Assembly: GCA_963705505.1 (NCBI GenBank)
Contig: CAVPJU010000001.1
Span: 257,678-321,677 of the forward strand
Reading direction: 5' to 3'
DNA: 64,000 nt
DNA from: an uncultured bacterium
Lineage (GTDB): Bacteria; Desulfobacterota_D; UBA1144; Nemesobacterales; UBA2774
Shown one piece after another: positions 23 to 13,899 of the stretch. Made by a program: the position numbers and the translations under genes. Each line of letters begins with the position of its first letter. Positions within the stretch are counted from its first letter, which is position 1. The notes beneath the pieces were generated by a model. It made no database searches, was not told the DNA's origin, and worked only from the letters and a program-made list of their open reading frames with translations.

Positions 23-120
23 TTTATTCTCAAATAACCTTGCAACAATTTCAAAATATTGTAGATTTAAATACCGCGGGGTGTAGCTCAGATTGGCTAG
101 AGCGTTGCGTTCGGGACGCA
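23..120 (+). repeat. Left att site: tRNA-Pro promoter plus 5' half of tRNA (77-120)
   Basis: TTTATTCTCAAATAACCTTGCAAC...TTCGGGACGCA matches 10276-10374; identity stops right after the anticodon stem. Confidence 0.92.
40..67 (+). promoter_or_regulatory. sigma70-type promoter (copy of tRNA promoter) upstream of integrase
   Basis: TTGCAA (40-45), 16 bp, TAGATT (62-67); same sequence precedes the intact tRNA at 10293-10320. Confidence 0.65.
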
Positions 121-167: not shown

Positions 168-207
168 TTTCAACCATATTTTCCTTCTTTCTAACCATAT
201 TCTAACC
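168..207 (+). repeat. Putative integrase arm-type sites (left)
   Basis: TTTCAACCATAT (168-179) and TTCTAACCATATTCTAACC (189-207); near-identical tandem at 10189-10207. Confidence 0.65.
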
Positions 208-256
208 CAAGACACTAGCTATATGTCCAAATACTTCAAATCTTTGGAGGCGACAT

Positions 257-1345
257 ATGGCGAGTTTACAGCGTAAGAACGGGACGTATTGGGCGGTCTT
301 TGCTGAAGGGGGTAAGCGAAAGTGGCTTAAGATCGGCGATGTTTCCAAGTCAAAGGCAAAAGCGATATTAAAAGAACTGGAAGCTGAACGGGCAAGAGAT
401 AGGCTGGACCTTCTTTATCTAAAAAAGATAAATTTTTACGAATTCGCGGAAATTTATTTGAGATACGTAAAAACGAACAAATCCGAAAGTTCCTATAAAA
501 GGGAGGCTTACACCGTTAGAAAGTTGAAAGAGTTTTATGGAGATATTCCATTAAGAAAATTCGATACTCAGCTAGTTGAAAGTTATAAAACCAAGAGAGT
601 TGAAGATGGGCTAAAAAATAAAACAATCAACCGGGAACTTGAGATATTCAGACATCTGATGACAATTGCAAAAGATTCAGGGTATCTGTCAAAAGTACCG
701 AAATTCAAAATGCTACCAGTAAAGGTGCCTCCGGTTAGATTTCTCTCAATTGACGAAGTCCATAAATTATTGGAGAACAGTACTCCCTGGTTGGAGCCTA
801 TGATAATTATTATGTTGAATTCTGGTATGCGTTTTTCCGAAGTTAAAAACCTGAAATTTGAGGATGTTGATTTTGATAAGAATATAATCTGCGTCAGATC
901 CGCCAAGAACAGCAGCAACAGATTAAGCTCTTTTACGGACTTCAGGGTAATACCCATGAATGAGGTTCTTAGGGATACATTGATATGGGCTAAGTCTTTT
1001 TATGTAGATCCTAAAACCCTGATTATTAATAAACGGGATTCTCACCGGTTGAATTATGTTTTTTGTAAGCCTGATGGCAGACCAATTGGCAGTATAAGAA
1101 CGAGCTTCACAAAAGCTTGCCGTAAGTCAGGCATTACAAATACCGATACATATATTCTCAGGCACACTTTTGCATCCCATCTGTTAATGAATGGCATTGA
1201 TTTAGTTACGATTCAGAAACTTCTCGGCCATTCCTCAATTTCAACGACTATGATTTATTCTCATATTTCTGATAAACATAGGGCAGAGAGCGTAAAAGTA
1301 CTTCCATGGAACAATTGTGTAAAAAATGTAGAGGAAAAGCTATAA
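257..1345 (+). CDS. Tyrosine recombinase/integrase with short N-terminal arm-binding-like segment
   Basis: SGMRFSE (Arg), YILRHT (HxxR with H->Y), LLGHSS, TMIYSH (catalytic Tyr). Confidence 0.95.
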   Translation: MASLQRKNGTYWAVFAEGGKRKWLKIGDVSKSKAKAILKELEAERARDRLDLLYLKKINFYEFAEIYLRYVKTNKSESSYKREAYTVRKLKEFYGDIPLRKFDTQLVESYKTKRVEDGLKNKTINRELEIFRHLMTIAKDSGYLSKVPKFKMLPVKVPPVRFLSIDEVHKLLENSTPWLEPMIIIMLNSGMRFSEVKNLKFEDVDFDKNIICVRSAKNSSNRLSSFTDFRVIPMNEVLRDTLIWAKSFYVDPKTLIINKRDSHRLNYVFCKPDGRPIGSIRTSFTKACRKSGITNTDTYILRHTFASHLLMNGIDLVTIQKLLGHSSISTTMIYSHISDKHRAESVKVLPWNNCVKNVEEKL

Positions 1346-1460
1346 AGAACAACTAGTTGGCTTAATCTTCATATTCGAAAAATCCTTCCTATCAGTCGGT
1401 AATCAGGCTAACTTTCTGGAGAAACCTCAAAGTACGGATAACAAAGTCTGAACTAAGAAT

Positions 1461-1624
1461 ATTGTCATAATTGAATGACAATTTTTGTCATTTCCGTCGT
1501 TACTCAAATAGCATTAAGTCGTGCTACTTTTCTAGTAATTTGAAGGAGTTAAATAATTGTTAACGATAATTCCGACTAGTATAGTTTATTATTGGCTTAT
1601 AAATAAGATGGCATGAATTTTGAT
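1461..1624 (+). promoter_or_regulatory. Overlapping palindromes plus possible sigma54 -24/-12 site upstream of TPR gene
   Basis: ATTGTCAT-N6-ATGACAAT (1461-1482), AATGACAA-N3-TTGTCATT (1474-1492); TGGCATG-AATT-TTGAT (1609-1624; GA instead of GC at -12). Confidence 0.4.
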
Positions 1625-1686
1625 ACTAAGTAAGAATACAATAAAATTCGTAAACTATCTGACAAATCATTCTTTGGAGTAAGTAT

Positions 1687-4600
1687 ATGTTTGAGACTCT
1701 CGATTCTGAGTTAAATGCTGTCAGTAGAAATAAAAGATTATTGCTTTCTGATCATGTGTTCTCATGCGTTGTAATACCTGGTGTTGATACATCTATAGAA
1801 TTCATTAATTTATGTAATACAATAAAACAGCATCTGTACCAAACGCGAATACAAGTTAATTTTTTGCCAGAAATAGATAAGCAAGCTGGATCATACGAGC
1901 AGCTATTCGATCAATTAGTTGATAACTGCATTTTTGTTATTGCGATGAAAGGGGACTTTGAAAAGAGTTTATCATACGAGTATGGATATTTGAGAGGCAT
2001 AAGAAAGCCAATTATTGTAATAAATACCACATATAATCCAACACCTGCCGATACAAAACATGATAGAGTCAATCATGATAATTATGAATCTACTCATAAA
2101 GAGGTCTTGAATAAATTCATCTATTACATTGACTTAGGTTCAGAATCTCAACATGATCTTCCGGATCAATTTATAAACAAATTCGATCAAATCCTCTTAG
2201 AACTAGTGGAAGGGTCTTTAATTAACTTCGATAAGATCATTAAAGGAAACCAAGAAGTACAGTTTAATGATATCAAATATCTGATAAGTCGTATTATAGA
2301 CTATTATATATTGCGGAATGGATACGGTTTACATGAGATCGATGAGATATTTAAATCGATTGATAAATTAGATGCAAATCAACATAAGAATCTCCCTTCG
2401 TTCGTACTAAACTGCTTACTTGCTCTATCAATTGATTTATTGAGAGCACAAAATGATAAGAATCAAGTTCATGATATAGCAGAAAAGTGCATATCTATGT
2501 GTCAAAAAATATTGGATAATGAAAAAGATTTAGCATTTAAAGCAGTTATAGAGAAAAAGTTGGCTGATTTGCTGTTAATTTCCCCAGACCCGGATAATGA
2601 GGTTGGGAATCTTGAAAGAGCTGTAGATCTTTATAAAAAATCTAAAGAGTATTTAACAATAGATGACTATCCTCATTATTTAGTTTCAATAAATAATAAT
2701 CTTGGTGTGGCGTTGAATGATTTATTCCAAATTGTAGGAGAATCAAAGTATCTGAATGAAGCGAATGATTATCTTTCTAACCTGGTGGCAGATCAAATCT
2801 CTTCAAATTCCAATTCTAATTATGCGTTAGTTAAATATAATCTTGGTATTACCAGGTTGGGGTTTGCTTCAGTGGTTAGTGCTCAATATGATTATTATGA
2901 TGCACTTGAATGCTTCAATAGCTTTCTAATGGATTCTTTTTACCTCGATAATAGTGAAGAATTTTTGGATATTGCAATCAACATTGGGTCTATATATTTT
3001 ACAATTGCTCAAGAGCAAAACGATCAACTATGTTGCGAGAGATCAATAGGAGTATTTCAAAAAGTTCTAGGTTTATGCTCTACTCAAATTCATGAAATGG
3101 AGTACGGAATTATTAACCGCAGTCTCGGTGATATTTATAGCTTTCTTGACACATTAAGACCAGATAATATTGAAACGAAGCTGAATATTATTGGATTTTA
3201 TGAAGAAGCTTTAAAAATATATACACTAGATAAATTCCCAGATGAATATTGTTGTATAAGGTTCAAATTAGCAGATGCACTAAGTACACTTAAGCGTCGA
3301 CACGATTTGGAAAGTGCGTCAGAAATCTTCAATCAACTTTTGAGTACTCCAATTCTTGAGTCTTACAACTACAATTATGCTCTTATTCAAAAGAAACTTG
3401 CCATCTTATACTTAAGGTTAGCCAAAATGGATATGAGTAAGAATTATCACTCTATGGCTATAGAGAGTTACGAAGGCGCATTGTCTCAATTCTCTTCAAT
3501 GAAAGACGAATACGAGATTGCAGATCTAAAAAAGTATTTGGGAGATTTGTACATTCTCGATGCGAAGAAGAAAAGTGATTTCTCTTTATATCTAAAAGCT
3601 ACAGAGGCTTATCAAGATGCACTTAGTTATTTTACAAGAGATAAGTTCCCATTGGTTTTTGCCTCACTCAAGATGAAACTCGGTGATCTAAATATAATGA
3701 TCGCAGAAAATCAGAATTCTATCGATGATTATAATGATGCTATTCGTGCTTATGAGGAATCTCTCAATATTTATAATTCTTATGAATTTCAAAAAGAATC
3801 ATGGGAAGTGCATAAAAAGATTAGCGATACATATATGACCTTGGGAGACATCAAATCAAATTCACAATATCCAGATGATGCGATCAATTATTATACTGAG
3901 GCTCTAAAATTTCTAACAAATCAAAGCTCACCGATTGAAAAGGGGAATGTTCTGAGAAAACTAGGTAATGAGCATGTTCAATTTTCTAGAATTGTATACC
4001 GTACTCAAAATTTAAAACATGCTCTCGAATATTATGAGAAAGCCCTAATGTATTACAATCCTGACGAGTATCCATCCGAATATGAAGAGATAAGAATTAA
4101 TATGGGAATGAATTTCAGGATATTAGCAGTTCTTGAAAAAGAGAGGGGCAACTTGAAAAATGCAATCTCATTTTATGAGAGAGCTGCTGAGTTTATTTCA
4201 ATTAACAACAATCCAAATAAATACGCTTCACTGATGGTCGCAATTGGATCCATATACAAGCAATTATCGCAGATTGAAAATGAAGTAGTTAATAGCAAAA
4301 AAGCTATCGAGTATTATATCAATGGATTAGTTGTTTATAATCCACAAGATCATCCTCTTGAGCATGGTTCTTTACAAAAATATCTAGGGTTAGCATATAT
4401 AGATATAGCCGAGAAAGAGAATTATCTCGAAAATATAAGAAATGCATATAAAGCATTTGAAGCATCTCAAAAAATATATTCAGTCGAAGACAATCCCGAA
4501 GATTTGTTATTTGTGGAGAGTAAATTGTCGGAACTGAGTAGAAAGATTTCAAATGGAGATAACAGCACTTCAAATCAAAATGTGCTTCAGGATGCAAGCT

Positions 4601-6408
4601 ATGATAATTTTATGACGCTTGATCCAATCAATTCTACTCTCAACAATCAAGAAATTGCTGAACAAATAATGACACTTGACCAACCGGCTGAATTTGAAGA
4701 TATAGACTCCAATAGAGAGGGCTTGAAAGAAGTAAGAGTTGAAACAGACGAATTCGGTCCATTAAATTTGGAAATAGACTTTACTAATAACGAATTAAAT
4801 GACGATTCAGAATCTATTGAACGTCTAGATCAGCTCATCAGCGAGACATCTCCAGTGGAATCGCCAAAGCTTCATGCATACCTAAATTATAAGATTGGCA
4901 ATGCCTATCATAATATTGGCAAATCTCACGGTTCCTCACAAAATTACAAAGAAGCAATAAGATATTATGCTCAAGCCTTAAAATATTATACATATGAGGA
5001 ATACCCATATGAATATGCTTGTGTAAATGGCGAACTTGCAACTACTTATAAATATCTAGGTGACTCATCTGGCGATTTAATGAACTATGAGGTTGCAATA
5101 GAATTATACAAGGAGTCATTAGGAGTAATTAAGATTGATGAGCATCCCATTGAATTCGGGAATTATAACCTAAATATGGGACTCATTTTTAGTGAATTTA
5201 GCAGAATTCTTCAACTTAAAAAGTATCATGATAATGCGATACATGCATATAATGAAGCATTAAAGGTTTTTGAATCGAGCGAAAATCCTTCTGAGTATGG
5301 ATTAATTCAGATGAAGCTAGGTTCCGTTTATAGCATGCTTGCTGATTATGAAAGTTACTCCTATAACTGTCTAAAATCTGCTGAAGCTTACAAGCAAGCA
5401 CTAACCGTATACGGATTCGAGAATTTCCCGAATGAATTTGCAGAGATTCAAAAAAAACTGGGCATCTTATATTTGGACTCTGGTTTAAATGATCTGGACA
5501 ATAATAATTTCTTGTTATCTGTAAAATCATTCGAAGAAGCACTAAAACACTATAACTTAGAAAATTACCCGGCGGATTATGGATTAATAAAAATAAAAGA
5601 AGCTAAATCTTATGAATATTTATCCAAAGCTTCCGAGGAATCATTTTATTTGAGACAAAGTATCGATGCTTATAAAGAGGCAATTAAATATTATACCCAT
5701 GAGACTTATCCAGATGTATTTGCTTCGATAGCATTAAGTTTAGGCGATGTTTATCAGAATCACGGTAAACTAGAAAACACAGACATAGATCGAAGAATTG
5801 CAATTGAATACTATAAGCAGGCTCTTATGGTTTATAATTCAATTGAGTTTCCTCTAGAGTATGCAACTACAGAATATAACATAGGAATGGCATACTTAAT
5901 GCTTGCAGATTCTGAGCAACTAAAAGATAATATCATTAAGGCGATAAATTCCTTCAAAGCATCATCAAAAGTCTATTCGAAAATAGGGCTATCTGATCAG
6001 TATGGAAGTTGTGAGAATAATCTTGGCATAGCGTATATGAAAATTGCAAATGAACGGGAAAGTAGTACTTATCTGTTGTTAGCTCAAGAATGTTTTGAGA
6101 AGGCGATTAAAGTCAGGACTTGTGAAAAACAGCCGCTCGAATTTGCCAATACGCAGTTTAATTTAGGGGCCTTATTCATGATACTCTATAAGAACGAGAA
6201 AAAAACAGAATATGCCGAAAGGTCTGTACAAGCTTATGAAAAGGCTCTGCAAATCTACATCGAGGATAAATTTCCGGTTGAATACAACTCAATACAAAAT
6301 AATCTTTCTTGGATGAATCAAACACTTGCTAAAGAAAAAGATGAAAACAAGTCTTATGATAATAGCTGGGCTTACCTACGAAAGTCTACTCCGAATAATT
6401 TAAATTAA
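1687..6408 (+). CDS. Giant tetratricopeptide-repeat protein with N-terminal nucleoside 2-deoxyribosyltransferase/TIR-like domain
   Basis: N-term SLSYEYGYLRGIRKPIIVI; many repeats of the type AIxxYxxALxxYTxExFPxEYAxxQxNLG; acidic linker near aa 955-1050. Confidence 0.8.
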   Translation: MFETLDSELNAVSRNKRLLLSDHVFSCVVIPGVDTSIEFINLCNTIKQHLYQTRIQVNFLPEIDKQAGSYEQLFDQLVDNCIFVIAMKGDFEKSLSYEYGYLRGIRKPIIVINTTYNPTPADTKHDRVNHDNYESTHKEVLNKFIYYIDLGSESQHDLPDQFINKFDQILLELVEGSLINFDKIIKGNQEVQFNDIKYLISRIIDYYILRNGYGLHEIDEIFKSIDKLDANQHKNLPSFVLNCLLALSIDLLRAQNDKNQVHDIAEKCISMCQKILDNEKDLAFKAVIEKKLADLLLISPDPDNEVGNLERAVDLYKKSKEYLTIDDYPHYLVSINNNLGVALNDLFQIVGESKYLNEANDYLSNLVADQISSNSNSNYALVKYNLGITRLGFASVVSAQYDYYDALECFNSFLMDSFYLDNSEEFLDIAINIGSIYFTIAQEQNDQLCCERSIGVFQKVLGLCSTQIHEMEYGIINRSLGDIYSFLDTLRPDNIETKLNIIGFYEEALKIYTLDKFPDEYCCIRFKLADALSTLKRRHDLESASEIFNQLLSTPILESYNYNYALIQKKLAILYLRLAKMDMSKNYHSMAIESYEGALSQFSSMKDEYEIADLKKYLGDLYILDAKKKSDFSLYLKATEAYQDALSYFTRDKFPLVFASLKMKLGDLNIMIAENQNSIDDYNDAIRAYEESLNIYNSYEFQKESWEVHKKISDTYMTLGDIKSNSQYPDDAINYYTEALKFLTNQSSPIEKGNVLRKLGNEHVQFSRIVYRTQNLKHALEYYEKALMYYNPDEYPSEYEEIRINMGMNFRILAVLEKERGNLKNAISFYERAAEFISINNNPNKYASLMVAIGSIYKQLSQIENEVVNSKKAIEYYINGLVVYNPQDHPLEHGSLQKYLGLAYIDIAEKENYLENIRNAYKAFEASQKIYSVEDNPEDLLFVESKLSELSRKISNGDNSTSNQNVLQDASYDNFMTLDPINSTLNNQEIAEQIMTLDQPAEFEDIDSNREGLKEVRVETDEFGPLNLEIDFTNNELNDDSESIERLDQLISETSPVESPKLHAYLNYKIGNAYHNIGKSHGSSQNYKEAIRYYAQALKYYTYEEYPYEYACVNGELATTYKYLGDSSGDLMNYEVAIELYKESLGVIKIDEHPIEFGNYNLNMGLIFSEFSRILQLKKYHDNAIHAYNEALKVFESSENPSEYGLIQMKLGSVYSMLADYESYSYNCLKSAEAYKQALTVYGFENFPNEFAEIQKKLGILYLDSGLNDLDNNNFLLSVKSFEEALKHYNLENYPADYGLIKIKEAKSYEYLSKASEESFYLRQSIDAYKEAIKYYTHETYPDVFASIALSLGDVYQNHGKLENTDIDRRIAIEYYKQALMVYNSIEFPLEYATTEYNIGMAYLMLADSEQLKDNIIKAINSFKASSKVYSKIGLSDQYGSCENNLGIAYMKIANERESSTYLLLAQECFEKAIKVRTCEKQPLEFANTQFNLGALFMILYKNEKKTEYAERSVQAYEKALQIYIEDKFPVEYNSIQNNLSWMNQTLAKEKDENKSYDNSWAYLRKSTPNNLN

Positions 6409-6548
6409 CTTATATAGACGTCGAGTCTCTGAATCTCGCTGATCGGTTATGTGTTTGCCGCAGTTGACTCCTATACATAAAGGAGAAGCCTCTTCAGCTT
6501 CATTGGAATTTTCAAAGGCGACACAGGTTTTCTATGTCTTCTCTATAT

Positions 6549-6610
6549 CTACATTTGCTACACCATCTACACCAAGCACTTAAAGCATGTAGAAGATGTA
6601 GGAAATGTAG
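6549..6610. repeat. Inverted array of 9-bp-period repeats (iteron/origin-like)
   Basis: CTACA at 6549, 6558, 6567; 16-bp spacer; TGTAG at 6588, 6597, 6606. Confidence 0.75.
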
Positions 6611-6694
6611 GAAAAGAGCAAGACCGTCAAAGATATGTGGGACGAATTGTTGTGAATCAGGGGGTAGGAGAATAACATTCTAGACCGACCAGCT

Positions 6695-7903
6695 TTAATT
6701 GTTGACCCCACTGATATTTGTTTTATCGTAGGGGTGTTTCAAGTAGTTGCCGGTTTTAAGGAGATTGTAGATGGCCTCTGTAGCAACCTTATGACCGTAA
6801 GCGTTCCAGTGCATTCCCTTACGGTAGTATGTTCTTCGCCAAGTTCCTTTGAAAGCAGATGCCATGTCATAACAAGTAATGTCGAGTTTCATGCAAATCG
6901 GTTTAATTTTCTCCTGATATGGTGTGGAGTCGTATAGATGTTCAATTTCAATTTTGGAAGGGATGAAAAAAATAACTAGTTTGGCTCCCTTCATTTCGAC
7001 GGCTTTATCAAGCTCTTCAAAAATTCTAGACGTTAACTTCAAGTCTTGCTGAGCTTCAGGATATGAATCGGGATCATTCTGAGTATTGAAGTCTTCGACC
7101 ACGTTTTGGTGATAATCGTAGAGTTCAGAATACTTGGTTTTTAACCGTGTATACATATCGTGTAGAAAGTATGATTTAAATAAGACCTTTTTAACGTACT
7201 CTTTCCAGTCGTTTACCGGGGTGGCGGGTCTATTGGTTTCGTTCCATGCGGGTGTTTTAGGAACAGGCACACCCGTGAGGATGATCTTGTTCCCGGCAAT
7301 TTCGAATTTTGGCTTCGGTTTCTGATAAGGATTCTTGCCGTCGTACTCATATGAATTATTTTCCTCGACATCATTTTCACAAATCATCAATACTACCAGC
7401 TTGATTTGTCCCTGATATCGCCAGTTTTCAAAAGCTAATAGTTCCTGGTCATTACCATAACCGCTCATAGAAAGATTGAATATTTCATAATCTGGCAGCT
7501 TGTCCCTAAGTAGATTAATGAACATTTCATCGAACTCAACCTCATAACCATATGTGAAAGAATCTCCGAGGAATAGAATTGCAGGTTTGCTACTTATACC
7601 TTTATGTTCTATATCTCTGAAACCGTAGGTGTTGTGCTCGACCAGGAAGCTGTTGTTTTCAGTAGTCATCCTGGCTTTACCGCCCGGTACTCCCTTCCAA
7701 CCTAGTACGGGGTCGTATTCAGACAAATTTCCGTGCAGCCTCATATTGATCTCGTATGCGCTGAAGTACGGGAATGGGCTGAATATGCGGTAACCAATCT
7801 CGATAACTAGGAACGTTAGTATTAATGAACATAGAAAAAGTATTATTTTCAGAGGTAAGAGGCGTTGATTCAGATCCGAGGATTGTCGGTTGTGATTTTT
7901 CAT
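6695..7903 (-). CDS. Membrane-anchored SGNH/GDSL hydrolase or acyltransferase
   Basis: N-terminal TM helix, LGDSFTYG, SGYG, ENDV, MHWNAYGH blocks; ATG at 7903 preferred to TTG at 7951. Confidence 0.85.
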   Translation of the reverse strand: MKNHNRQSSDLNQRLLPLKIILFLCSLILTFLVIEIGYRIFSPFPYFSAYEINMRLHGNLSEYDPVLGWKGVPGGKARMTTENNSFLVEHNTYGFRDIEHKGISSKPAILFLGDSFTYGYEVEFDEMFINLLRDKLPDYEIFNLSMSGYGNDQELLAFENWRYQGQIKLVVLMICENDVEENNSYEYDGKNPYQKPKPKFEIAGNKIILTGVPVPKTPAWNETNRPATPVNDWKEYVKKVLFKSYFLHDMYTRLKTKYSELYDYHQNVVEDFNTQNDPDSYPEAQQDLKLTSRIFEELDKAVEMKGAKLVIFFIPSKIEIEHLYDSTPYQEKIKPICMKLDITCYDMASAFKGTWRRTYYRKGMHWNAYGHKVATEAIYNLLKTGNYLKHPYDKTNISGVNN

Positions 7904-8193
7904 ACGAATTCTCGATGGGTAAAGATACTTAATAATGAAGAGCGCAACCAATTTCCAGAATATAAAAAAACAATTCTGAAGACATAACAGTTCAGCTATA
8001 AATCAGAATTTCAAGAATTATTAAAATATGCTTAATATTGTATTTGTATTTTAATTTGATTGTCCTAACTATCTATGTTCAATGCTCTTTTTATATCGAT
8101 TTTAGAGATATAAAGCCTTATTATTCAAGAATTTGATAGATTTGCATATACAAAGCACTTTTTTCTATATAATTATTCTTACTTATAAGAATT

Positions 8194-9405
8194 ATGAAGA
8201 AGCCACCTGCAGTAGTTATTAAGCTGGATTGCAGAACAGGATTACAAACTGCAAGAATATTATCCAGATATCAAATCCCCGTAATAGGAATTGTAGATGA
8301 TCCTGCGAATTTTTGCGGTAGAACCAATTCATGTAAGGAAATTTTAGTTACTAACACATCAGATGAAAGGCTTGTTGATACATTATTGAGTTTAGCTTTA
8401 AAAATACAAGACAAAGCCGTACTTTTTCCTATCAGCGATCAAAGTGTTCAGGTTGTATCAGATAACAGGGAGAGGCTCGGGGAATTTTATCATTTTGTAA
8501 TACCTGATGGTAATATTCTCACGCTTTTCATGAACAAGACAAATTTTTACAAATATGCACAAAAGAAAAGTCTCTCGATACCCAACACTTATTTCCCTAG
8601 AACGAAAGCGGAACTTGATGAAGTAGCAGACAGAATTCAATTTCCTTGTATAGTTAAGCCAGCGATAAGAACTGGAACGGATATTTGGTTCGATCATTTT
8701 AGTAACAAGGTAATTAAAATAAACAACCCGCAAGAATTATATGATGTATTCGATAGATGCTTGATCGCTTCCGAGAATATAATTGTTCAGGATTGGATAA
8801 AAGGAAATGACTCTAACTTGTTATCTAGTATTTTTTACTATGATTCAAACTATAATCCCGTAATAACTTTTACTTCACGCAAACTAAGGCAGTGGCCCAT
8901 AGAAAATGGTGATGCATCTTTGGCTATAGAATGCAGAAATGATGAAGTCTTGAATCAAACCACTGAAGTACTTAGCAGCGTTAAGTTTAAAGGACTAGGC
9001 TCGATAGAATTTAAAATGGACGATTCGAGCGGTAGATATTTTATTATAGAACCGAACATTGGAAGACCCGTCACTAGAATCGGTTTGGTAGAAAAAGCAG
9101 GAGTCGAAATTCTCTATACGATGTATTGTGATGCATTGGGCCTGGCGTTGCCTTCTAAAACAAAACAGCAATTTAAAGGCATAAAATGGATTTCAATTAA
9201 TAACGATATTCGAGCAGCTATGGCTTATTACAAAAATGGCGAGCTAACTATTTGGGAGTGGTTTAAATCGATTCAGGGTGTTAAGGCATTTGCGGATTTA
9301 TCCGTTCGGGATCCCATGCCCTTTTTAATTGAAACATTGTATCCTTTGAAAAAATTTCTCTGGCTATTAAGGCAAAAATTAGCAAGGGCCATATTTAGAA
9401 TCTAA
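8194..9405 (+). CDS. ATP-grasp carboxylate-amine ligase (D-aspartate ligase-like)
   Basis: FPCIVKPA, IVQDWIKG, RKLRQWP, IEFKMD...FIIEPNIGR, DPMPF motifs. Confidence 0.8.
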   Translation: MKKPPAVVIKLDCRTGLQTARILSRYQIPVIGIVDDPANFCGRTNSCKEILVTNTSDERLVDTLLSLALKIQDKAVLFPISDQSVQVVSDNRERLGEFYHFVIPDGNILTLFMNKTNFYKYAQKKSLSIPNTYFPRTKAELDEVADRIQFPCIVKPAIRTGTDIWFDHFSNKVIKINNPQELYDVFDRCLIASENIIVQDWIKGNDSNLLSSIFYYDSNYNPVITFTSRKLRQWPIENGDASLAIECRNDEVLNQTTEVLSSVKFKGLGSIEFKMDDSSGRYFIIEPNIGRPVTRIGLVEKAGVEILYTMYCDALGLALPSKTKQQFKGIKWISINNDIRAAMAYYKNGELTIWEWFKSIQGVKAFADLSVRDPMPFLIETLYPLKKFLWLLRQKLARAIFRI

Positions 9406-9771
9406 AATAAATATGTGTTAAGCTCGAATAAATATTCCACCCCACCAGAACCTGAGATATGAAAACTTATTATCTCTGTTATATCAATATTGCAACAATT
9501 CCTACACCATCTACACTGCATCAACGTTAGTCAGAGATTGAGTTTTCATGTTTTAACAGTTTCTCAAAAGTCTTCCCGGTCTCAATATAGGTTCGTGACA
9601 ATTGATTGATTACCCAAAATTGTAATTGCATTTTATGAACCTTCATGCTCACTTCGATGTCAACATCTAATATCGCTTGATCCCGCCTACTTAGAAGAAT
9701 GTATGTTTTGTTTACTTAAAGTCATACGAGTTGAAAACATACAAAATCATGTACTTTTCTATACTTTTTCA

Positions 9772-9818
9772 TTGACATTTGAGGTAGTAAGCGGTACCGT
9801 ATCTAACAGTGTTAGATA
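9772..9818 (+). promoter_or_regulatory. sigma70 promoter and operator-like palindrome over start of small Cys/His gene
   Basis: TTGACA (9772-9777), 17 bp, TACCGT (9795-9800); TATCTAACA-G-TGTTAGATA (9800-9818). Confidence 0.6.
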
Positions 9819-10099
9819 AATCACTTTTAAAGCAAATTAAATCTCTCAATCTAAAAGAACTACGAGAGCTTCATGGCTACATCCAATCTCATCTACCTCC
9901 GTCTGTTGTCTACCAGCAAAAACCAGTAAAATGCGGATGTAAACTATGCAAAGAAGGTGGAAAAGGTCACGGTCTTTATTGGTATGCCTACTTCACTTAT
10001 CAGAATAAAACTCACTGTATTTATGTTGGAAAAGAAAAGAGAGAAATAGATCCGTTAGAAGAGCTTGAGAAAAAGAAAACTAGACGGAGGTCTAAATAA
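9809..10099 (+). CDS. Small basic Cys/His protein (DUF6788-like), putative DNA-binding
   Basis: CGCKLC...HGLYWYAY...IYVGK motif; basic C-terminus; at element end opposite integrase. Confidence 0.75.
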   Translation: MLDKSLLKQIKSLNLKELRELHGYIQSHLPPSVVYQQKPVKCGCKLCKEGGKGHGLYWYAYFTYQNKTHCIYVGKEKREIDPLEELEKKKTRRRSK

Positions 10100-10188
10100 T
10101 GGGAGTCTTTAAATGGAACAATAGAGTCAAACTTTACATATTGCACTGATCTGATTATAATTTTTCATGAGAATAGACATATAGTTAG

Positions 10189-10207
10189 TTCTAACCATGT
10201 TCTAACG
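10189..10207 (+). repeat. Putative integrase arm-type sites (right)
   Basis: TTCTAACCATGTTCTAACG, 17/19 identical to 189-207. Confidence 0.65.
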
Positions 10208-10330
10208 GATATGTAAGAATTAAGGGAAAAACCAGTGTCCTTAACGAACTTACAAGAATGCCAATTTGAGTTCTTTTTATTCTCAAATAACCTTGCAACA
10301 ATTTCAAAATATTGTAGATTTAAATACCTG

Positions 10331-10408
10331 CGGGGTGTAGCTCAGATTGGCTAGAGCGTTGCGTTCGGGACGCAGAGGCCGCCGGTTCAAGTCCGGCCAC
10401 CCCGACCA
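10331..10408 (+). tRNA. tRNA-Pro(CGG)
   Basis: Acceptor stem CGGGGTG/CACCCCG, anticodon arm TTGCG-TTCGGGA-CGCAG, T loop GTTCAAGT, encoded CCA. Confidence 0.97.
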
Positions 10409-10431
10409 TTAATTTCAAGTGCTCTCGCCTT

Positions 10432-11523
10432 TTAGCGGGAGAATACGACCATAAGGATTTCCGCCAGGATCAAAATAATAATGACCAGTTCCAGAGTTTG
10501 GCTTTGGGTCGTTCGCACCCGGTCGGTTAGCAACTGATATAGGCTGGCGATAATGTCGAGTTTGCGCGAAATGGCGCTCTCCCAATCTTGCAGATAGAGT
10601 CTTCGAGCGGCGACGGCATGAACTCGGGCCAGATAGAGATCCCCAATCAGCTTGAGGGCATTATCAACCCTTTCGGCTAGCAACAGCGATTCGAGTCGTA
10701 GTTCGGCCAGTGCTTGAATCGCTTTCCGATTTGGCGTGCGCAACGGCACTAACCAATCTCTGTGTTTGAACGAGAGTCCTTGATAATCGCCGATGCGCCG
10801 ATCCAGTTGCTCGTCCATATAGCGCGCTTCTAATAACTCCACGTTGAGTAATTCTAAGACATTGACGGTGTCTTGATAATCACGATCATAGACAAGCGCC
10901 GCATTCCAATCCACAATGACTAGATCGTTCTTGTAGTAAGAGAGCCTTTGATTCAGCGCCTCCTCTTGCTGCTCTAAACTGAACGGCTGAGTTTCAAACC
11001 GCAGCACCTGTGCGATGAGTGAGCTGTGCTGCGCCAGCAAATCGGCGGCGGACCAGGGTTGGTCAAATTCCTCTATGACGAACAAATAATAATCTTCTAC
11101 CAGAGGCGACAATTCAGGCCGGATTACTGCCGAGCGAATTTCTTCCAGAAATACTTGAATCTGTTCCTTCGCCTGAGCTTCCAGATTACGGTCATGAAGC
11201 GTTCGACTGAGCGGTTGCAAATCTGCCAATGACAGGGCTTGCTGGCCGGTGGGCAGTGACCATTGATAAGCTATGCTGGCAGCGCCGAAATCAAAGACTG
11301 TGACCTGCGCTCGCCCTGCTTCAGAAAGAATGGGTCTTATCTCTCCCAAATTCACGACGAGAGGCGGCTTTGAATACTGTATGAAAGTGGGGGTCTGTTT
11401 TTTGGGCGAGAGCGGCTGCACAGGTGCTGATGAAGGCAACTTGCTAAGCTGCTCGAGCGACACCTCAAAGCCAATGTCAAAGGCAAAAAGAGCTATTACT
11501 CTGCCGTTCAAGATCTTCGTCAT
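10432..11523 (-). CDS. Conserved hypothetical protein, RMD1/DUF155- or CorA-like, with C-terminal TM helix
   Basis: 363-aa ORF; DLVIVDWNAALVYD, GDLYLARVH, LELVIIILILAEI C-terminus. Confidence 0.6.
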   Translation of the reverse strand: MTKILNGRVIALFAFDIGFEVSLEQLSKLPSSAPVQPLSPKKQTPTFIQYSKPPLVVNLGEIRPILSEAGRAQVTVFDFGAASIAYQWSLPTGQQALSLADLQPLSRTLHDRNLEAQAKEQIQVFLEEIRSAVIRPELSPLVEDYYLFVIEEFDQPWSAADLLAQHSSLIAQVLRFETQPFSLEQQEEALNQRLSYYKNDLVIVDWNAALVYDRDYQDTVNVLELLNVELLEARYMDEQLDRRIGDYQGLSFKHRDWLVPLRTPNRKAIQALAELRLESLLLAERVDNALKLIGDLYLARVHAVAARRLYLQDWESAISRKLDIIASLYQLLTDRVRTTQSQTLELVIIILILAEILMVVFSR

Positions 11524-11624: not shown

Positions 11625-11960
11625 TTGGGAGAGATACATCCGGAGGGGGATGAGCAGAGGTGCTGGAACCACAAGATAACTAATGTTCTTGATGCAATGC
11701 CCAGGAGAGTAAGGGATGAGGCAGGGGAATATCTTAAGAGGATTCCCTACGCACAGACCCGGAAGGAATGTGAGAGGCTGAGGGATGAATTTGTTAACCG
11801 ATTACAAGAGAGATTATCTAAAGGCAGCAGAGAAGCTTCTTACAGACTGGGAACGGATGGTTACTTTTTATTCTTATCCTCAAGAGCACTGGGTGCACAT
11901 AAGGACAACCAATGTCGTTGAATCGCCCTTTAGTTCAATAAGACTGAGGACCGATGCGCA
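11625..11960 (+). pseudogene. IS256-family transposase remnant (truncated, frameshifted)
   Basis: QRCWNHKITNVLD in one frame, YPQEHWVHIRTTNVVESPFSSIRLRT in the next; N-terminus missing. Confidence 0.85.
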
Positions 11961-12006
11961 AAAGGTTCAAGAAGGGGAGTTGATTCAAGCTTCAGGAACT
12001 TTGAGC

Positions 12007-12035
12007 AAAAAAAAGGGGAGCGGTTGCTCCCCTTT
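12007..12035 (-). terminator. Intrinsic terminator of the secreted repeat protein gene
   Basis: AAAGGGGAGC-GGTT-GCTCCCCTTT hairpin with A-run on + strand (U-tract on -). Confidence 0.8.
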
Positions 12036-12057
12036 CGATATTTAGAGATTGCATTCC

Positions 12058-12625: not shown

Positions 12626-13777
12626 CTAAGCACGGAAGTTTTTCAGGGCTTCCTTCATTTTAGAAACTGAAAGTTTTCGGAGTGCTTTCTTTTCGATCTG
12701 TCTTATCCTTTCCCTGGTGAGCTTGAATTTCCTGCCGATGTCGTCGAGCGTCACCACGTCGCTCCTGTCTATGCCGAAACGCATTCTCAGCACTTCTTCT
12801 TCTTTCGCACTGAGAAGCGCGAGGGAATTGCGTATGCTCTCTTTTAATTCGCAGTCCACGACAATGTGATCGGGCGAGATCGATTCTTCGTCCTCGATAA
12901 AGTCGTAAAGTGTCCTTCTCTCTCCATCGACCGGAGAATCGAGACTTACGGACTCATTCGTAATTTTCAGTATTCGCTTAACATACTTCAGCGGCACGCC
13001 TGAACGGTCTGAAATCTCCTCGGAGGTAGGGTTTTTGCCGGACTCTTTTAAAAGGAGCGACTTCGTGCGGTACACGCGGCTCGTTACCTCTAGCAGATAC
13101 ACGGGGACTCTTACCGCTCCCCTGTGAACCAGGATCGCTCTCGTTATGGCCTGATATATCCACCAGGACGCATAGGTGGAAAATCTATACCCTTTGGAGT
13201 AGTCGTATCTTTCGATCGCCTTCATGAGTCCGATATTCCCTTCCTGTATCAGGTCGAGGAAAGGAAGACCGTGGTTCACATACCTCTTTGCGATGCTTAT
13301 GACTAATCTGAGGTTGGCGCTCGCAAACCTTTTCCTTAACTTTTCAGCTTTAAGGGAATAAGCTTTTAGTGAGGCGTTAAGCCTGTTCCTGTTTTGATTG
13401 TGGTTGATGTGCCCGTTTGCGGTACCGCCGTTCTCGGAGCTGTCGGGGAACCTCTCGAGGTACGATGTGATTTGTTTTATTTTATATTCACATTTTTTTA
13501 TTTTTGCCGGTATCTCAACTTCTTCTTTAAGAGAGAGTAGAGGTTCTTTTGAAATGTCCCTGAAGTAATCGTTCAATATCCTGAACTGCTCGTCTTGTTT
13601 ATCGTAGATATCCTCTCGTTCCGCATCGTCGAGGGCAGCCCCGTCATAGTCCTCGCCGCTCTCTTCAACGCTGAATATCTCATCGTCTGCAAAAATTTCC
13701 TCCACCGCTGCTTCTTCGAAGTGCTCCGCGTAGCTTTCAGCCCCAATTTCCGATGCGCTAATTTCGTCGTATTTCAT
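12626..13777 (-). CDS. sigma70-family factor, RpoD/RpoS-like (lacks region 1.1)
   Basis: NLRLVISIAKRY, DLIQEGNIGLMKA, RFSTYASWWI, TRERIRQIE; ATG at 13777 with GAGG RBS. Confidence 0.92.
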   Translation of the reverse strand: MKYDEISASEIGAESYAEHFEEAAVEEIFADDEIFSVEESGEDYDGAALDDAEREDIYDKQDEQFRILNDYFRDISKEPLLSLKEEVEIPAKIKKCEYKIKQITSYLERFPDSSENGGTANGHINHNQNRNRLNASLKAYSLKAEKLRKRFASANLRLVISIAKRYVNHGLPFLDLIQEGNIGLMKAIERYDYSKGYRFSTYASWWIYQAITRAILVHRGAVRVPVYLLEVTSRVYRTKSLLLKESGKNPTSEEISDRSGVPLKYVKRILKITNESVSLDSPVDGERRTLYDFIEDEESISPDHIVVDCELKESIRNSLALLSAKEEEVLRMRFGIDRSDVVTLDDIGRKFKLTRERIRQIEKKALRKLSVSKMKEALKNFRA

Positions 13778-13899
13778 ATTCTCGTTCCTCTCTGAAAATT
13801 TTCTGTTACTTCTGATCGACAATCGGTAGAAAGCAAATCAAAGCCTGTTTGGGTTTTAGGCTCACGGGTTATTGCCTCCCTTCTCTATACATTCATAAG

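Follow-up and report, generated by a model that had tools for sequence, protein, structure and literature searches.

A DUF6788-like gene with a predicted palindromic operator over its start codon on an integrative element at tRNA-Pro(CGG) of an uncultured bacterium

Among the closest described systems are the xis-int operons and autoregulated integrase modules, among them those of lambda, Tn916 and P2 with its Cox protein; P2 Cox and 186 Apl are directionality factors that also autorepress. IntS/TorI of KplE1 is likewise an autoregulated integrase module, according to the part of PMC2951348 used here. We analysed a 64,000-nucleotide stretch of DNA from an uncultured bacterium (GTDB lineage Bacteria; Desulfobacterota_D; UBA1144; Nemesobacterales; UBA2774; contig CAVPJU010000001.1, hereafter the window), which holds a 10.25-kb low-GC integrative element inserted at tRNA-Pro(CGG). 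Like the xis-int operons, this element targets a tRNA and pairs its integrase with a small gene for a putative DNA-binding protein, which would repress a promoter close to the recombination module. It differs from them in that the 96-amino-acid (96-aa) small protein matches none of the profiles HTH_17, HTH_31, AlpA, MerR and DUF2384 (excisionase profiles used in PMC8138268, as far as the part drawn on here goes), and in that the palindrome over the gene's start, not an attachment (att) site, would serve as its control site. On balance we think it probable that the small protein binds this palindrome and represses both itself and the recombinase gene that usually lies downstream, and that the TCTAAC repeats at the element ends are a separate set of sites, likely read by the integrase.

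As the original prediction had it, a palindrome, TATCTAACA-G-TGTTAGATA, spans the GTG start codon of the 96-aa open reading frame (ORF; Table 1). The predicted promoter has a perfect -35 (TTGACA, 9772) and a -10 matching at three of six positions (TACCGT, 9795-9800), and a consensus scan did not list it; the transcription start site is likewise a prediction. Because the start codon falls 8 nt past the -10, the mRNA would be leaderless or nearly so. A perfect 9-bp palindrome would not by itself stand out, since one turned up in 24 of 100 shuffled versions of the element, and an inverted TCTAAC pair is rare, with a mean of 0.03 per shuffle. Homologous loci share the consensus TATCTAW-N5-WTAGATA, with a spacer of 7 nt at three loci and of 6 nt at L142, positioned right after the -35/-10 pair and across the start codon, and a perfect inverted repeat of at least 7 bp covers the start in 12 of 25 loci versus 1.7% of 5,000 random windows. 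Among the 17 loci with a 5-nt centre, TATCTAW is present in the left half in 12 and in the right half in 15, and at three loci (L008, L027 and L134) the arms reach 9-12 bp with differing outer bases. Codon 2 was TTA in 16 of 17 leucine cases versus 42 of 173 elsewhere in the gene, and codon 3 was GAT in 18 of 19 versus 24 of 42 elsewhere; these counts come from related loci, and the bias points to a constraint at the DNA level.

A matrix built from 15 sites of other genomes ranked the two small-gene promoters of this genome first and second in 2.88 Mb (26.0 and 19.9, the latter by a narrow margin over the next score of 19.1). The gene thus has what is expected of an autoregulatory repressor, namely a conserved inverted repeat over its own promoter and start and a site confined, by the top two matrix hits, to its own promoters in the host genome. 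The autorepressor reading is further supported because DUF6788, the family to which we assign the small protein below, heads Trans_reg_C-BTAD-AAA_16 regulators, and because UBP, which binds DNA sequence-specifically, is the top PDB sequence match to the family profile. We also weighed whether a host regulator binds the palindrome, or whether the palindrome is itself a recombination or hairpin site, with the small protein doing something else. The variable spacer of the palindrome would suit this account, as would the start of similarity between the window and a second copy of the gene on contig C3, 45 bp upstream of the palindrome. Against it, the only two strong sites in the host genome are both at the small gene, and an RNA hairpin is not expected because a transcript from the predicted start would not include the left arm. 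No LexA domain was found in the genome (93.6% complete) and recA lacks the palindrome site, which together point away from a host regulon. Of the explanations considered, this is the one to which we give the least credence.

Searching 120 genomes from the phylum turned up the small gene in 14, from which 32 non-redundant loci were kept after removal of nine duplicates and two loci without a tblastn hit. At 23 of the 32, a tyrosine integrase of the 'class A' clade lies directly downstream (22 within -23 to +36 nt of the stop), stop and start often overlapping, while a large serine recombinase follows in two loci and neither recombinase type in seven. Near-identical small proteins occur beside three divergent tyrosine-integrase subclades and beside serine recombinases, and the small-protein tree, which is poorly resolved, does not follow the integrase clades (11 changes versus a shuffled mean of 12.4). 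The palindrome is conserved, and in 25 of 32 loci the small gene is coupled to a recombinase gene just downstream. We propose that the protein, likely a zinc-stabilised beta-sheet fold, would bind the palindrome probably as a dimer formed through the N-terminal helices, and that the bound protein would block its own near-leaderless promoter, capping both itself and the coupled recombinase.

The original prediction had offered a directionality factor or an autorepressor; autorepression is the best reading, and directionality is possible but unsupported. We consider it unlikely that the small protein is a Xis-like recombination directionality factor, perhaps also autorepressing, that bends att DNA or contacts the integrase. 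Such a role would fit a small, basic protein encoded in the classical xis position with the coupling to int described above, as well as the fact that the window, L030 and sequencing run X1 have all kept the gene next to the right att end, and the lack of an HTH_17 gene in the window element and in as much of this genome's second element (C3/C6) as was assembled. It is harder to reconcile with the sharing of a near-identical protein by recombinases that it does not track, with an HTH_17 gene in L202 and L216, though not in L215, these three being the complete class A elements from other genomes, and with the small gene's presence in none of six complete class B elements of other genomes. Nor were TATCTA half-sites, an inferred motif, enriched near att in 15 loci, with 0 exact matches versus 1.5 expected and 21 versus 23.4 at one mismatch.

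Tandem TCTAAC repeats inside both element ends, which had been predicted along with the palindrome, are confirmed. The sequence TTCTAACCAT(A/G)TTCTAAC occurs at 189-206 and 10189-10206 in one orientation on one strand, these being the two matches in the window at up to three mismatches where 0.14 are expected; TCTAAC-N5-TCTAAC is found at only two places in the 2.88-Mb genome, both element ends, and the element contains 12 TCTAAC copies versus 6.0 +/- 2.5 in shuffles. We compared 17 'class B' integrases including that of the window, a set of 20 loci minus L177 (without its N-terminus) and L181 and L182 (of another clade). Twelve of them, the window's included, have a CTAAC/CTACC repeat with an 11-bp period 55-102 bp ahead of the start, between att and int and at several tRNAs; another four, a separate clade (support 100/97) whose N-terminus differs, have CAAAGAAT repeats instead, and the last has neither type. 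In five complete elements (L189, L191, L195, L199 and L186) the arm pair recurs at the far end with its orientation kept. Where the end repeats lie, and their covariation with the integrase clade and not with the target tRNA, mark them as arm-type sites, in line with what had been proposed for them. From the known role of arm domains, as given in the part of PMC8138268 used here, the integrase would bind the TCTAAC repeats. The window integrase has R192, K217, R302, H325 and Y334, with Tyr299 replacing the first His of HxxR.

The original prediction went on to treat arm sites and palindrome as one motif read by competing proteins, and this part was not supported. The palindrome stays constant next to serine recombinases and next to integrases whose arm cores are GTTAGC, GACACC, CCGTAC and GTGACC; the C that its left arm needs for TCTAAC is found in 2 of 17 loci, and the matching right-arm G is the third base of the start codon. 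The arm regions also differ from the DUF6788 family half-site at two to four of eight bases. The expected co-occurrence of homologs with integrases is borne out at the 23 of 32 loci given above and by close homologs on integrative elements; the expected matching motifs are not, in that the palindrome does not track the arm motifs. Comparison across loci suggests that the palindrome is most likely separate from the arm sites and its TCTAAC overlap with the end repeats a coincidence. One observation counts against this separation: CTAACA is common to the window's left arm and to the arms of the C3-type element, which read TGCTAACA, though it is absent from the palindrome of the C3 copy itself.

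We therefore regard as very improbable the proposal that the small protein mimics the arm domain and competes for TCTAAC sites, or that the palindrome lets the integrase repress the small gene. The TCTAAC match in the window is real, the inverted pair is rare in shuffles, most loci have a minus-strand TCTAAC in the right half of the palindrome, and the profile match of the small protein is better to class B than to class A integrase N-termini (25.4 and 16.8). Yet the palindrome is kept where TCTAAC arms do not exist, and the arms are direct repeats with mostly C or T after CTAAC whereas the palindrome is inverted with A; together with the left-arm and half-site counts above, this comparative evidence argues against binding of the small protein to arm-type repeats.

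Judged from its sequence, the small protein is a divergent member of DUF6788. It scores 14.8 bits against Pfam DUF6788 (PF20586), under the gathering cut-off of 27.2, its 77 close homologs are all tagged PF20586, its profile retrieves full DUF6788 members scoring 28-37 bits, and its nearest Atlas clusters are DUF6788 (0.89). The motif C-x-x-x-C..C...HG-x-YWY...Y-I/V-G is shared with the family, its residues invariant or nearly so in 91 alignment rows; unlike the Pfam family, the window protein has an N-terminal helical pair and belongs to a recombinase-linked subfamily. AlphaFold2 models (predicted local distance difference test scores of 87.7 and 85.0) place strands at 33-39, 56-64 and 67-74 and a helix at 82-95, with two N-terminal helices and the Cys loop between strands 1 and 2. 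Cys42, Cys44, Cys47 and His54 are conserved, so that the putative zinc site noted earlier stands as a conserved CxC..C..H set beside a predicted three-stranded sheet and helix, and the protein may bind zinc through it. Close homologs occur in records labelled Dadabacteria, Thermodesulfobacteriota or Deltaproteobacteria, among others. At L008 (10001-10999) the small-protein domain is fused to about 240 residues without a known family, and a large serine recombinase follows.

The resemblance to an integrase arm domain that had been noticed by eye stood in part. The predicted beta-beta-beta-alpha order agrees with that of the arm-binding domain of complex tyrosine recombinases, which has three antiparallel strands followed by one helix (PMC8138268, in the part drawn on). 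Using hhalign, we reproduced the alignment weakly against class B integrase N-termini (probability 27.6%, E 6.5e-4, score 25.4; above 60 of 60 column shuffles), with a borderline score of 16.8 against class A N-termini that 1 of 60 shuffles equalled; a deeper family alignment gave probabilities of 31% and 48%, and these matches (E 2e-4 to 7e-4) run over strands 2 and 3. The small protein differs from the arm-binding domain in standing alone, in its zinc insert and N-terminal helices and in its tie to an inverted and not a direct-repeat site, and the hhalign probabilities are just 28-48%. Fold searches with the small-protein model listed weak dsRBD- and AP2-like matches, with no arm domain among the matches listed. 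Arm-binding domains resemble the dsRBD topology. Domain search and the AlphaFold2 model revealed no winged-helix or MerR/AlpA-type excisionase fold. A possible natural bridge is suggested by the sequence of the integrase at L134 (1290-1484, minus strand), directly downstream of the small gene, which has a CxCxxC...HGxW insert in its own N-terminal arm domain; hhalign aligned only the Cys motif. As an intermediate, it would link DUF6788 and integrase arm-binding domains in evolution.

Sulfolobus UBP matches weakly over the GxYWY...Y-x-G hairpin (NCBIfam E 0.009; family-profile PDB search E 0.087), but its Foldseek match is not significant (E 1.0). UBP binds the major groove sequence-specifically through beta-hairpins, with K63 of the hairpin loop contacting bases; it differs in being chromosomal and essential and in binding DNA as a monomer, and the part of its description used here mentions no zinc site (PMC12141716). 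Tentatively, and with less confidence than in autorepression at this locus, we suggest that DUF6788 may be a free-standing, zinc-clamped sister of the arm-binding domain turned portable autorepressor with a family-wide operator (CTTA[TG][CG]TA, inverted), which in Dadabacteria would form a swappable promoter-repressor cassette setting the level, and maybe the direction, of tyrosine or serine recombinases, a non-helix-turn-helix switch between integration and excision. If so, island mobility in this bacterial group would be set by an exchangeable cassette whose fold lies outside the usual lists of excisionases and repressors. The palindrome gives a widespread family of undescribed function a concrete predicted DNA site. 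A regulator-integrase cassette with DUF6788, and any paper naming DUF6788, were not found in the literature searched; with its unusual fold and predicted operator the cassette is a variant of the known regulator-integrase kind.

The second small-gene copy of this genome, on contig C3, is 88% identical and coupled to a class A integrase (dN/dS between the copies = 0.10). In the window the small gene is followed by five integrase codons as in C3 and then by unrelated DNA, which indicates that the module was captured from a C3-type element, the donor integrase surviving as these five codons. At locus L030 the small gene (71% amino-acid identity), an ATG GGA relic, the far promoter and the TCTAAC arm pair are all intact, and its protein groups apart from that of the window; run X1 has a contig with the small gene and the right element end. 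The window arrangement is therefore not a one-off. We give a low probability to the possibility that the small gene is here a passenger from a nested or recombined class A module, without a role in recombination, purifying selection having acted in the donor lineage. The integrase relic and the 84% identity to the C3 module would fit a passenger, as would the weak -10, the decay of the gene in genome G007 and its absence from the element remnant in G006; the intact arrangement in L030 and its presence in run X1 speak against it.

In the integrated element the small-gene promoter faces the right att end, and in the excised circle it would face int across attP from about 410 bp away, alongside the strong promoter-like site ahead of the right arm pair; no terminator was predicted over 9400-10500. 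That promoter-like site recurs in L030, and a similarly placed TATAAT in L186, L189, L196 and G006. In all six cases, the window included, this TATAAT lies about 30-50 bp before the far arm pair and points outward; only in the circle would int lie in front of it.

Neither the element as such nor its arm sites are out of the ordinary. It has an integrase, a tRNA gene with a displaced fragment and an empty site in relatives, and is thus a tRNA-targeting integrative element: a direct repeat of 98/99 bp with one 1-bp indel flanks it, comprising the 53 bp that precede tRNA-Pro(CGG) and the tRNA 5' half through the anticodon stem, and in genus relatives the tRNA-Pro gene is undisrupted, with one contig of run X2 skipping the element. 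The attL core holds a promoter-like TTGCAA-16-TAGATT at 40, and its tRNA-upstream part is conserved across the genus. Like Islander tRNA-targeting islands, the element has a tyrosine integrase, an anticodon-centred core and a tRNA restored by element DNA; it differs in belonging to the minority that displaces a 5' tRNA fragment, known but rare (159 of 3,919 islands in the part of PMC4383910 used here), and in bringing 53 bp of upstream region as well.

Table 1. Positions of features in the window, and of the second element of the same genome (by contig)
Feature	Position	Strand	Remark
attL core: 53 bp of tRNA-Pro upstream DNA and displaced tRNA-Pro(CGG) 5' half	23..120	+	
Possible third, degenerate arm unit	168..179	+	sequence
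Left arm-type pair, TTCTAACC units, 11-bp period	189..207	+	
Tyrosine integrase, 362 aa, 'class B' clade	257..1345	+	Pfam PF00589 E 1e-29
Cargo: 1573-aa TPR protein	1687..6408	+	DNA 96% identical in G007
Cargo: SGNH/GDSL hydrolase	6695..7951	-	
Cargo: ATP-grasp protein	8194..9405	+	
Module common to window and C3 element: promoter, palindrome, small gene, integrase relic	9755..10113	+	84% identical
Predicted sigma-70 promoter TTGACA-17-TACCGT	9772..9800	+	
Palindrome TATCTAA-N5-TTAGATA over -10 end, predicted transcription start and start codon	9800..9818	.	putative operator
96-aa DUF6788-like protein: two N-terminal helices, CxCxxC...H site, three-stranded sheet, basic C-terminal helix	9809..10099	+	
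Relic: first five codons of C3-type class A integrase	10099..10113	+	overlaps small-gene stop
Promoter-like TTTACA-17-TATAAT	10133..10161	+	11/12 consensus; 28 bp ahead of right arm pair
Right arm-type pair	10189..10206	+	orientation as left pair
attR core: tRNA 5' half and upstream DNA as carried by the element	10276..10374	+	
Intact, restored tRNA-Pro(CGG) at element right end	10331..10408	+	
Second element, integrase N-part (split by tRNA-Leu(CAA) att site)	G000:C3:350574-351778	-	L001 13568-14775
Second element, integrase C-part	G000:C6:815532-815930		L200; after intact tRNA

The integrase of the second element is split by its att site, TGCTAACA arm pairs standing on either side, and is in this respect like the Mx8 and SSV integrases that extend across attP (PMC4383910, in the part drawn on). 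Loci L141 and L142 look like this split-integrase element. Relatives of the window element from which the integrase is deleted sit at the same tRNA in L184 (G007), L185 (G006) and run X4, and in G006 a second class B element is inserted behind such a remnant. The class B integrases at tRNA-Pro(CGG) (L167, L168, L179 and the window's) all lie behind a displaced 5' fragment and are not a single clade in the tree, while relatives at other tRNAs follow an intact gene. L186, L189 and L191 are class B elements of 6-7 kb with a DNA_pol_B_2 gene of 740-770 aa, and we take them to resemble pipolins. Just beyond the window element lie Mutator-type transposase fragments (11625-12045) and a sigma-70 factor gene (12626-13822). 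L220 (1358-3437, genome G016) is a 2.1-kb element with a 33-bp direct repeat that carries the small gene and one 306-aa ORF, with no other ORF of recombinase length; the gene that hosts it is, by its motif, presumably comM.

In distant groups, DUF6788 is N-terminal in 700-1500-aa BTAD-AAA_16 regulators of SARP/STAND type (L038-L104), several with Trans_reg_C or TPR, and no tyrosine integrase was found by tblastn near distant members at any of 23 loci. Related inverted sites precede distant stand-alone DUF6788 genes; those of Actinomycetota read CTTAGGTA, while a viral family and L150 have CTTATGTA. Related palindromes were counted at 10 of 43 short, 9 of 17 mid-length and 0 of 24 fused DUF6788 genes, against a background of 24 in 2,565 windows (about 1%), the motif having been drawn from the same loci; reverse scans with the distant motif did not confirm it. 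At L256 and L257 a single viral contig carries two short GTCTTATGTAAC..GTTACATAAGAC palindromes, no DUF6788 gene lying less than 700 bp from them, and L251 contains a tandem array of CTTACATAAGAC-like units.

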